UHGV virus genome: UHGV-0069400
Strand: one strand, 5' to 3'
DNA: 25,507 bases
From: a virus
Shown piece by piece: positions 14,628 to 15,231 of this stretch. Numbering within the stretch: the first letter of the stretch is position 1; every line of letters starts with the position of its first letter. The position numbers and the translations under genes are program-made. The notes under the pieces are model-generated. The model worked only from the letters and a program-made list of their open reading frames with translations. It had not been told where the DNA came from and did not search any database.

Positions 14628-15231
14628 GACTGTTTTTTGTGTCGGTAGCGGTCCGTCACTCACTCGTGAGGACTGTGCTGCTATAGAAAAAACTGGCTGT
14701 TCAATCATCGCGGTTAACAATTCCTGGCAGATGTTCGATGACATTTATGCCTTATACGCCGGTGATTTGTCATGGTGGAAGCAATACGGATCCACCATAC
14801 CGGGAGGGAGATTCCGCAAAGTGACAGCCAACCTGGCGGCGGCGAAATCATTTTCGTTGGAGTACAGGCGATATTGTGGACCGGCGGAAGGGGTAAATAG
14901 CGGCGCGCAGGCTATCAGTCTGGCTGCTGAATCAGGGGCTGAAGTAGTGGTATTAGTCGGCTATGACTGTTCTCTGCAAAACGGCCTTCATTGGCATGGC
15001 GCGCACCCTCAAGCACTACGGAATCCAACGCAGGTGTCTATTTCAAAATGGCAACAGCAGTTCCTGGATACCCGCAAAAAACACGCAGATTTACATATTT
15101 TGAATGCAAGTAGGAGCAGTGCAATTCAATGTTTCCCAAGAATAAATTTAGAGGCAGTGATCGCGTTATTATCGTCGGCAGTGGCCCAAGCGCCGCAAAC
15201 TTTGTTGCGCCGCGCGGAGTGCCGATTATAG
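14602..15231 (+). CDS. Paralog A of a GxGPS / IIAVN / LVGxD Rossmann-like protein pair (possibly MAF/DUF115- or GT42-like)
   Basis: ORF track begins at 14569; ATG 14602 gives spacing to the conserved motif that matches paralog B. Motifs TVFCVGSGPSL, IIAVNNS, NSGAQAISLAAESGAEVVVLVGYD. The family assignment is from memory of motif shape only. Confidence 0.45.
   Translation: MNIPPRATRTVFCVGSGPSLTREDCAAIEKTGCSIIAVNNSWQMFDDIYALYAGDLSWWKQYGSTIPGGRFRKVTANLAAAKSFSLEYRRYCGPAEGVNSGAQAISLAAESGAEVVVLVGYDCSLQNGLHWHGAHPQALRNPTQVSISKWQQQFLDTRKKHADLHILNASRSSAIQCFPRINLEAVIALLSSAVAQAPQTLLRRAECRL

Follow-up and report, generated by a model that had tools for sequence, protein, structure and literature searches.

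Long same-strand gene overlaps that arise by stop-codon loss and 3' extension of the upstream gene are known in prokaryotes, in which the usual junctions take the ATGA or TAATG form. The overlap between the bacteriophage P1 genes pmgO and pmgP has in common with this class the ATGA phase and an extension of the upstream gene that is unconserved and neutrally evolving, and relatives of the locus carry a 4-nt GTGA junction (lineage L194) as well as overlaps of intermediate length. It departs from the class at the start codon: the pmgP start is not located at the pmgO stop, but lies inside conserved pmgO codons, 48-51 nt before the conserved PmgP core.

A second group of described systems consists of the -1 frameshift pairs, such as the tail chaperones G/GT and dnaX. 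These resemble pmgO/pmgP in having same-strand open reading frames (ORFs) in -1 phase, a heptamer that formally fits the slippery pattern and a fused homolog. Unlike G/GT and dnaX, pmgO/pmgP have neither a conserved slippery site nor a stimulator, their relative phase is not universal, and the downstream gene has a Shine-Dalgarno (SD) sequence and an ATG of its own.

The nearest described systems are the annotated gene pairs themselves. The 103-nt overlap is already present in the GenBank/RefSeq annotation of P1 (pmgO/pmgP; AF234172, NC_005856), and the same gene pair and overlap are annotated as hdmB/hdmC in P7 (AF503408). These records have the same CDS coordinates and the same 103-nt overlap as the locus described here, with no sequence difference. 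The pmgO/pmgP overlap is an ordinary, previously annotated gene overlap, and the present analysis concerns which of the two frames is constrained in each part of it.

Locus identity and overlap geometry

The window (the whole 25,507-nt stretch of virus genome UHGV-0069400 that was analysed) was 99.9-100% identical to bacteriophage P1, and positions 14569-15755, which contain both genes, were 100% identical to P1 records. The upstream gene, pmgO (14569..15231, plus strand; P1 79592..80254), encodes 220 aa from an ATG start, with an alternative start at ATG 14602. The downstream gene, pmgP (15129..15755, plus strand; P1 80152..80778), encodes 208 aa, also from an ATG. In P1 and most P1-like lineages, pmgP is followed by the lambda-type phosphatase gene ppp (15737..16429) and then by the glycosyltransferase-like gene pmgQ (16426..17127, plus strand; phrog_1962), the third member of a conserved O-P-Q module; other neighbours are pmgM (VRR-NUC) and pmgN. 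Both pmgO and pmgP are labelled 'putative morphogenetic function' in the records. None of pmgO, pmgP, ppp and pmgQ is required by P1 to form plaques (PMC10695390; PMC9024508), and the papers found on them give essentiality data only.

The original prediction had described two ORFs overlapping by 103 nt in different frames with neither of them truncated, and this description was borne out: both ORFs were found, and both family profiles were covered end to end. The shared stretch (15129..15231, 103 nt) corresponds to 33 sense codons of pmgO and its stop codon, and the pmgP frame is -1 (+2) relative to pmgO. In P1 the pmgP start lies 100 nt upstream of the pmgO stop, so the start-near-stop arrangement of ATGA-type termination-reinitiation is absent from this phage; that arrangement does occur in the relative L194 (GTGA), and L009-like lineages possibly have it too.

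Conservation of the junction

A search with the pmgO-pmgP region as query returned 587 matching plasmid records, only six of them below 95% identity, and 550 plasmid records each had at least 80% of the query covered in one place. The P1-like loci (n = 86) represented 57 haplotypes of the 1187-nt pmgO-pmgP region; no indel was found in any of them, both ORFs were intact and the ends of the ORFs were identical.

For comparison across longer distances, adjacent pmgO-pmgP pairs were taken from Cronobacter phage JK004, Citrobacter phage phiNP and further viral contigs, from P1-like plasmids or contigs of Salmonella, Klebsiella, Pantoea and Chimaeribacter, and from genome contigs of Zhongshania, Microbulbifer and Brevundimonas, the set being composed mostly of enterobacterial lineages. 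The alignment of the junction was gap-free from -33 to +120 around the pmgP ATG in 12 diverged lineages and remained so when extended to 19 non-redundant lineages. Comparison of the overlap in homologous loci, which had been proposed as a check, thus returned the same junction with no indel in all 19. The family-invariant C-terminal residues of PmgO (N179, S181, R182 and F189) are encoded in the reference frame, after a run of A residues, and the C-terminal family motif N-x-S-R...C-F...L-E lies in the reference pmgO frame as well. Homolog searches gave 51 clusters for PmgO and 328 for PmgP. Both ORFs are real genes, confirmed as a genuine overlapping pair.

The pmgP start site

The SD sequence of pmgP, AGGAG (15112..15116, plus strand), is formed by the PmgO codons Ser-Arg-Ser (AGT AGG AGC), and the invariant Arg182 of PmgO is encoded in P1 by the rare codon AGG. 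The spacer between AGGAG and ATG 15129 is 12 nt, longer than optimal; the good SD and ATG noted initially are therefore real as to the motif, with a spacing that falls short of that description. In 15 of the 19 lineages GGAG is found at -16, the Arg codon being AGG or CGG followed by A, and in two lineages whose Arg codon is CGT or CGA, GGAG is found at -9 instead.

The pmgP ATG is composed of the wobble base of the codon that precedes the conserved Cys-Phe of PmgO and the TG of the Cys codon. This wobble base (15129) is A in all 19 lineages, and the PmgO residue that it belongs to varies (Q, T, K, A or L). From the ATG to the GSGPS motif, the distance is exactly 51 nt (17 codons) in 19/19 lineages. 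In the stretch that begins at the upstream in-frame stop and ends at GSGPS, a search for ATG, GTG and TTG returned no canonical start besides ATG 15129. The invariant wobble A, together with GGAG at -16 or -9, indicates selection for a pmgP initiation site kept inside pmgO. The pmgP ATG and its SD, built from conserved PmgO codons, appear from these comparisons to be under selection, and initiation at ATG 15129 is probably in use. Because the start is located inside conserved pmgO codons, an overlap core of at least 40 nt is maintained across the enterobacterial lineages.

Frame-specific constraint within the overlap

Variability was calculated as the mean pairwise value over the 19 lineages and was assigned to codon positions in both frames. 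With the phase of this overlap, codon position 3 of pmgP corresponds to position 2 of pmgO (O2/P3) and position 3 of pmgO to position 1 of pmgP (O3/P1), the remaining class being O1/P2. In the upstream stretch that is coding for pmgO only (15069-15128), variability was 0.64 at O3/P1, 0.49 at O1/P2 and 0.36 at O2/P3, a pmgO periodicity (p=3e-5). In the downstream stretch that is coding for pmgP only (15232-15248), the respective values were 0.08, 0.00 and 0.61.

The overlap was divided into two segments. Segment A (15129..15164, plus strand, approximately 36 nt) encodes C188-A199 of PmgO, the family-conserved C-terminus, and M1-R12 of PmgP, a variable and disordered leader. Its variability was reduced (0.42 at O3/P1, 0.26 at O1/P2 and 0.37 at O2/P3) and its periodicity was not significant. 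No polymorphic site was present in these 36 nt among the 57 P1 haplotypes (p=0.067), and the PmgO residues C, F, L and E encoded here were 79-95% conserved. These observations are suggestive of a segment A that is constrained by both proteins.

Segment B (15165..15231, plus strand, 67 nt) encodes V13-I34 of PmgP, from the beta1 strand to the GSGPS loop, and L200-L220 of PmgO plus its TAG stop. Here the variability resembled that of the downstream pmgP-only stretch (0.22 at O3/P1, 0.21 at O1/P2 and 0.64 at O2/P3) and showed a pmgP periodicity (p=2e-7). Amino-acid identity over segment B was 0.77 in the pmgP frame versus 0.32 in the pmgO frame. Among the six SNPs of segment B in the P1 population, all six were nonsynonymous in PmgO and five were silent in PmgP; the PmgO tail had approximately 4 times the density of nonsynonymous polymorphisms found elsewhere in PmgO (Fisher p=0.0098). 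When purifying selection in both frames was sought across the overlap, 15165-15231 gave a pmgP signal only. Judged by its substitution pattern, segment B is evolving as pmgP alone. The proposal of genuine dual coding is consequently retained for about the first 36 nt and not for the remaining 67 nt, where the pattern of substitutions is that of pmgP only.

The PmgO tail and its drifting stop codon

The conserved core of PmgO extends over residues ~20-200, in agreement with phrog_4603, which spans residues 25-202. The family ends at or just past the motif CFPRxxLExxL/I: many homologs stop there, and others continue with unrelated tails. Every adjacent pmgO-pmgP pair examined overlaps, by 4 to 133 nt. 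The lengths recorded over all these pairs were 4 (GTGA), 7, 11, 13, 23, 40, 43 and 49 nt at the shorter end, and 67, 70, 94, 100, 103, 109 and 133 nt at the longer end. Lineages that share the same pmgP ATG have overlaps of 40, 49, 67, 70, 94, 103 or 109 nt. The phase of pmgO and pmgP is mostly -1, that of an ATGA junction, and is +1 in L203 and in L209/L210/L217.

In each lineage the pmgO stop arises from PmgP codons. It is a TGA in CGC-GTG-ATC (overlap of 40 nt), a TAG in ATC-GTA-GCC (49 nt), a TGA in GCG-CTG-AAT (70 nt), a TGA in GGG-GTG-ACA (94 nt), a TAG in ATT-ATA-GCG (103 nt, P1) or a TGA in GCG-GTG-AAT (109 nt). Resampling of synonymous codons with the P1 PmgP protein kept fixed gave a median overlap of 46 nt and a probability of 0.27 for an overlap of at least 103 nt, which makes the observed length unremarkable. 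Selection for the length of the overlap was considered and set aside, as 103 nt is within the neutral expectation.

The tail encoded by segment B is presumably disordered and without function. In the AlphaFold2 (AF2) model of PmgO (mean pLDDT 86.8; residues 1-16 below 50), the last helix spans residues 194-207 and residues 211-220 average 57. The terminal helix thus runs approximately 7 residues into segment B, so the boundary between core and tail is approximate, and part of the PmgO tail may, according to the model, pack on the fold in P1.

The strongest competing explanation is that all 103 nt are functional in both frames, the last 22 residues of PmgO having a P1-specific role such as an extension of the helix or a contact with PmgP. 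The modelled helix to residue 207 (moderate confidence), the identical length of the tail in the 57 P1 haplotypes and the recurrence of 'LSS' in the tails of several lineages are in its favour. The recurrence of 'LSS' is, however, a consequence of the invariant I-I-V-G codons of PmgP in the other frame, and the pmgO frame is most variable at codon position 2. The six SNPs of the tail all alter PmgO, the tail is missing from homologs or unrelated in them, and its length differs among lineages with the same pmgP start. We regard a functional tail of this kind as unlikely.

Alternative gene models

A shorter overlap would result if pmgP started at the in-frame GTG at 15219..15221 (plus strand; V31 of PmgP), the start chosen by many annotation pipelines, whose product would be 178 aa and whose true overlap with pmgO would be 13 nt. 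This model agrees with protein cluster P0054 (178 aa, beginning MPIIAVNG, 373 member sequences) and with similar shortened calls in L188, L190 and L192. The 178-aa product is nevertheless devoid of the GSGPS loop and beta1 strand that are present in every family member, and the 90 nt upstream of the GTG are under purifying selection in the pmgP frame. ATG 15129 and its SD are conserved, and residues 12-36 of the PmgP AF2 model have pLDDT values above 95. The GTG 15219 start was rejected on account of the lost GSGPS motif, and we consider it very improbable.

A programmed -1 frameshift would require slippage at the heptamer A_AAT_TTA (15144..15150, plus strand, in the pmgO frame), which formally fits the -1 slippery pattern, and would give a PmgO-PmgP fusion. 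The -1 position of pmgP relative to pmgO, the presence of an X_XXY_YYZ heptamer inside the overlap and the existence of a natural in-frame fusion of the two proteins in a phage contig (P0051, 376 aa), along with two further relatives in which two domains stand in tandem (P0247 and P0249), are compatible with such a mechanism. The sequence AAATTTA is, on the other hand, found in 1 of the 19 lineages (P1 only) and is absent from the other 18, and the phase is +1 in the lineages named above. No stimulatory RNA structure was detected in the region (local fold z=-0.95), AGGAG is located 28 nt upstream of the heptamer with no SD-like stimulator at the right distance, and pmgP is provided with a conserved ATG and SD of its own. 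AAT/TTA is not known to be among the efficient slippery motifs of E. coli. The heptamer was judged incidental and frameshifting at this site highly unlikely. The P0051 fusion is encoded downstream of lysis genes and still contains an internal GAAGGA-N5-ATG at its junction; together with P0247 and P0249, it suggests that the two domains work together, without implying that frameshifting occurs in P1.

The remaining concern of the original prediction, that an indel or sequencing error masks a true layout in which pmgO ends before the pmgP start, was ruled out by the 57 haplotypes from 86 loci, and its probability is negligible: the reference frame is kept without indel in 86 independent P1-like loci and in 19 diverged, gap-free lineages, and the indel-bearing records are homopolymer slips only. 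Two such records might otherwise have supported it. In protein P0002 (174 aa, 48 member sequences), the frame shifts within the A6 run (15075-15080), and a TAG (15111-15113) ends the protein just before the pmgP ATG; since this variant loses the family-invariant N179, R182 and F189, it does not represent the true frame and is either a mutant allele or the result of a homopolymer error. In phage record ON470615.2, nearby homopolymers are shortened by one T (position equivalent to 14633) and by one G (15240), both of them outside the overlap.

Automated annotation of the locus was inconsistent. PmgP was started by pipelines at GTG 15219 or at the pmgO stop, with the loss of GSGPS, and PmgO was cut to 166 aa or left out.

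Paralogy, structure and protein family

In a BLASTP comparison of PmgO with PmgP, only the N-terminal GSGPS..IIAVN block aligned (E 0.003). Profile comparison with hhalign extended the alignment to 160 columns, which reach from the N-terminal loop as far as the C-terminal helix (97.9% probability, E 5e-13), and paired the end of PmgP with the C-terminal segment of PmgO; the two families are approximately 26% identical at profile level. On this profile evidence, PmgO and PmgP are homologous over their full length and are anciently diverged paralogs. The designation of the two genes as tandem paralogs accordingly holds as to paralogy, and the derivation of the overlap from a tandem duplication is misleading.

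Each family also occurs alone. Among 80 PmgO-like viral loci that were fetched, 78 had no PmgP within about 3 kb, and these give no information on the junction; PmgP-like loci included seven without PmgO or PmgQ and three with PmgQ only. The low identity and the separate occurrence of each family indicate that the duplication is ancient and that the overlap is a later feature of the junction.

The PmgP AF2 model had a mean pLDDT of 93.9, with an average of 58 over residues 1-10, and beta1 (residues 12-16) was followed by the GSGPS loop; phrog_2111 covers PmgP residues 1-208. The Pfam family PF01973 (MptE-like/DUF115) was matched by PmgO with 23.4 bits and by PmgP with 20.9 bits (gathering threshold 34.6 bits), and by 37 of 41 PmgO and 51 of 57 PmgP family members, all below the gathering cut-off. 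The nearest Foldseek match of PmgP was the MptE/HPPK of M. jannaschii (8sd5; E 1e-3, prob 1.0, TM 0.43), followed by the Campylobacter sialyltransferases Cst-I/Cst-II (TM 0.36-0.49, E 0.04-0.3). PmgO matched only generic Rossmann folds among PDB structures, and its profile gave no significant match to PDB sequences (E 0.4-1). PmgO did match many uncharacterised Caudovirales proteins (E down to 1e-8), the named ones being annotated as MptE-like, DUF115, GT29 or sialyltransferase. An NCBIfam search with PmgO, PmgP and PmgQ returned nothing.

The fusion protein P0051 was used to search 1.84 billion representative proteins and yielded 2133 clusters at E<=1e-3. It had a sub-threshold match to the WaaZ Kdo III transferase model TIGR04437 of NCBIfam (E 0.00029) over residues 173-223, where its PmgP-like half begins, and the whole product had a faint sub-threshold match to PF27901 (WaaZ Kdo III transferase family). 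The MptE-like/DUF115, GT42 Cst-I/Cst-II and WaaZ families share with PmgO/PmgP an hhhhGxGPS loop at the N-terminus, with an hhAhN strand after it, as well as an NSG...LxGxD block; the differences from MptE and Cst-I/Cst-II lie in Pfam scores below the gathering cut-off and in TM values of only 0.36-0.49. PmgO and PmgP can be placed by these comparisons as remote MptE-like/DUF115, sialyltransferase-like proteins, for which a role as nucleotide-sugar (CMP-ulosonic acid) transferases would be a candidate function.

Downstream of lysis genes, the O-P-Q order is met again in unrelated phages. A tentative and rather doubtful extension of this assignment is that PmgO and PmgP form an obligate pseudo-dimer and, with PmgQ, an accessory module that moves an ulosonic acid to a cell-surface or other target, in which case the donor would plausibly be Kdo from the host CMP-Kdo pool. 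The hints for it are the P0051 fusion, the tandem relatives, the recurrence of O-P-Q and the sub-threshold WaaZ matches of P0051. If it were true, selection for co-expression would have left its mark in the tight, always-overlapping junction.

Discussion

The arrangement that we consider well supported is that of two real genes in which approximately the first third of the overlap is constrained in both frames, and the rest is pmgP coding sequence read through by a drifting PmgO tail. On this explanation, pmgO and pmgP would be co-transcribed and PmgP would initiate independently at ATG 15129, with an SD supplied by the Ser-Arg-Ser codons of PmgO. Over 15129-15164, the structurally conserved C-terminus of PmgO would lie over the disordered leader of PmgP, and the DNA would be constrained by both frames. 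Over 15165-15231, selection would act on pmgP only, for the beta1 strand and the GSGPS nucleotide-binding loop, and the pmgO frame would stay open until the first stop that PmgP codons happen to provide, giving an unconserved tail of ~22 residues. The junction was probably short at first, of the GTGA or ATGA type, and would have lengthened to the present overlap when the P1 lineage lost the stop.

The understanding of P1 biology is unchanged by the present analysis. Its value is mainly for annotation, as the comparative evidence fixes both gene models. The locus also illustrates how a long overlap can contain a dual-coding stretch that is short: inside this overlap, selection would switch from one frame to the other, and the length would be set by a chance stop in the codons of the downstream gene.

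Gene overlaps along the operon

The pmgN gene (14472-14627) heads a tightly overlapped operon in which consecutive genes overlap serially, at pmgN/pmgO, pmgP/ppp and ppp/pmgQ. In a table of PMC10695390, pmgN is listed as essential by CRISPRi and as non-essential by knockout. With the annotated pmgO start, pmgN and pmgO share 59 nt (14569-14627); the overlap is reduced to 26 nt if ATG 14602 is the pmgO start, and residues 1-16 of PmgO have a pLDDT below 50 in the structure model. Further downstream, pmgP overlaps the phosphatase gene ppp by 19 nt (15737-15755), and ppp overlaps the glycosyltransferase-like gene pmgQ by 4 nt (16426-16429).

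The pmgO-pmgP-pmgQ module in other phages

In smaller non-P1 phages, a holin/endolysin/Rz lysis cassette is followed immediately downstream by the pmgO-pmgP-pmgQ module, which was located at 2406-4190 of phage phiNP (locus L005), at 5001-6757 of L184 and at 2501-4177 of L190. Only P1-like lineages have the ppp gene as an insert separating pmgP from pmgQ, and some of these, JK004 and loci L188/L189, are without it.

Annotation of the junction

Gene models at the pmgO/pmgP junction differ between automated annotations (GTG 15219 in the window; loci L188, L190, L192 and L004). PmgP is frequently made to begin either at GTG 15219, as a protein of 178 aa (cluster P0054, 373 member sequences), or at the pmgO stop, where an ATGA supplies the start codon and the product has 172-186 aa. 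With either start, the invariant N-terminal GSGPS loop of PmgP is lost. The annotation of phage JK004 lacks PmgO, and PmgO is cut to 166 aa (P0003) in NCBI records of E. coli/E. fergusonii. Hundreds of RefSeq/GenBank records of pmgM, pmgO and pmgP homologs carry the product name 'norphogenetic protein', apparently a typo that spread from the note on pmgM of P1, which reads 'putative norphogenetic function'.

Frameshifted variants

The 174 aa PmgO variant P0002 (48 member sequences) is frameshifted within the A6 run at 15075-15080, ends at TAG 15111-15113, directly ahead of the pmgP ATG, and is missing the invariant C-terminal residues of PmgO; either a null allele or a sequencing error in the homopolymer probably accounts for it. 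In the phage record ON470615.2 (L273), a T6 and a G4 homopolymer, equivalent to window positions 14633 and 15240, have each lost one base; the two deletions fragment both pmgO and pmgP, and look like long-read sequencing errors.

Natural fusion and two-domain relatives

P0051 is a natural in-frame PmgO-PmgP fusion of 376 aa (L184, 5001-6131; junction 5528-5580), and two further tandem two-domain relatives were found, P0247 (442 aa) and P0249 (413 aa). An internal GAAGGA-N5-ATG is kept at the domain junction of P0051, and judging from this motif, the PmgP-like half might also be translated on its own.
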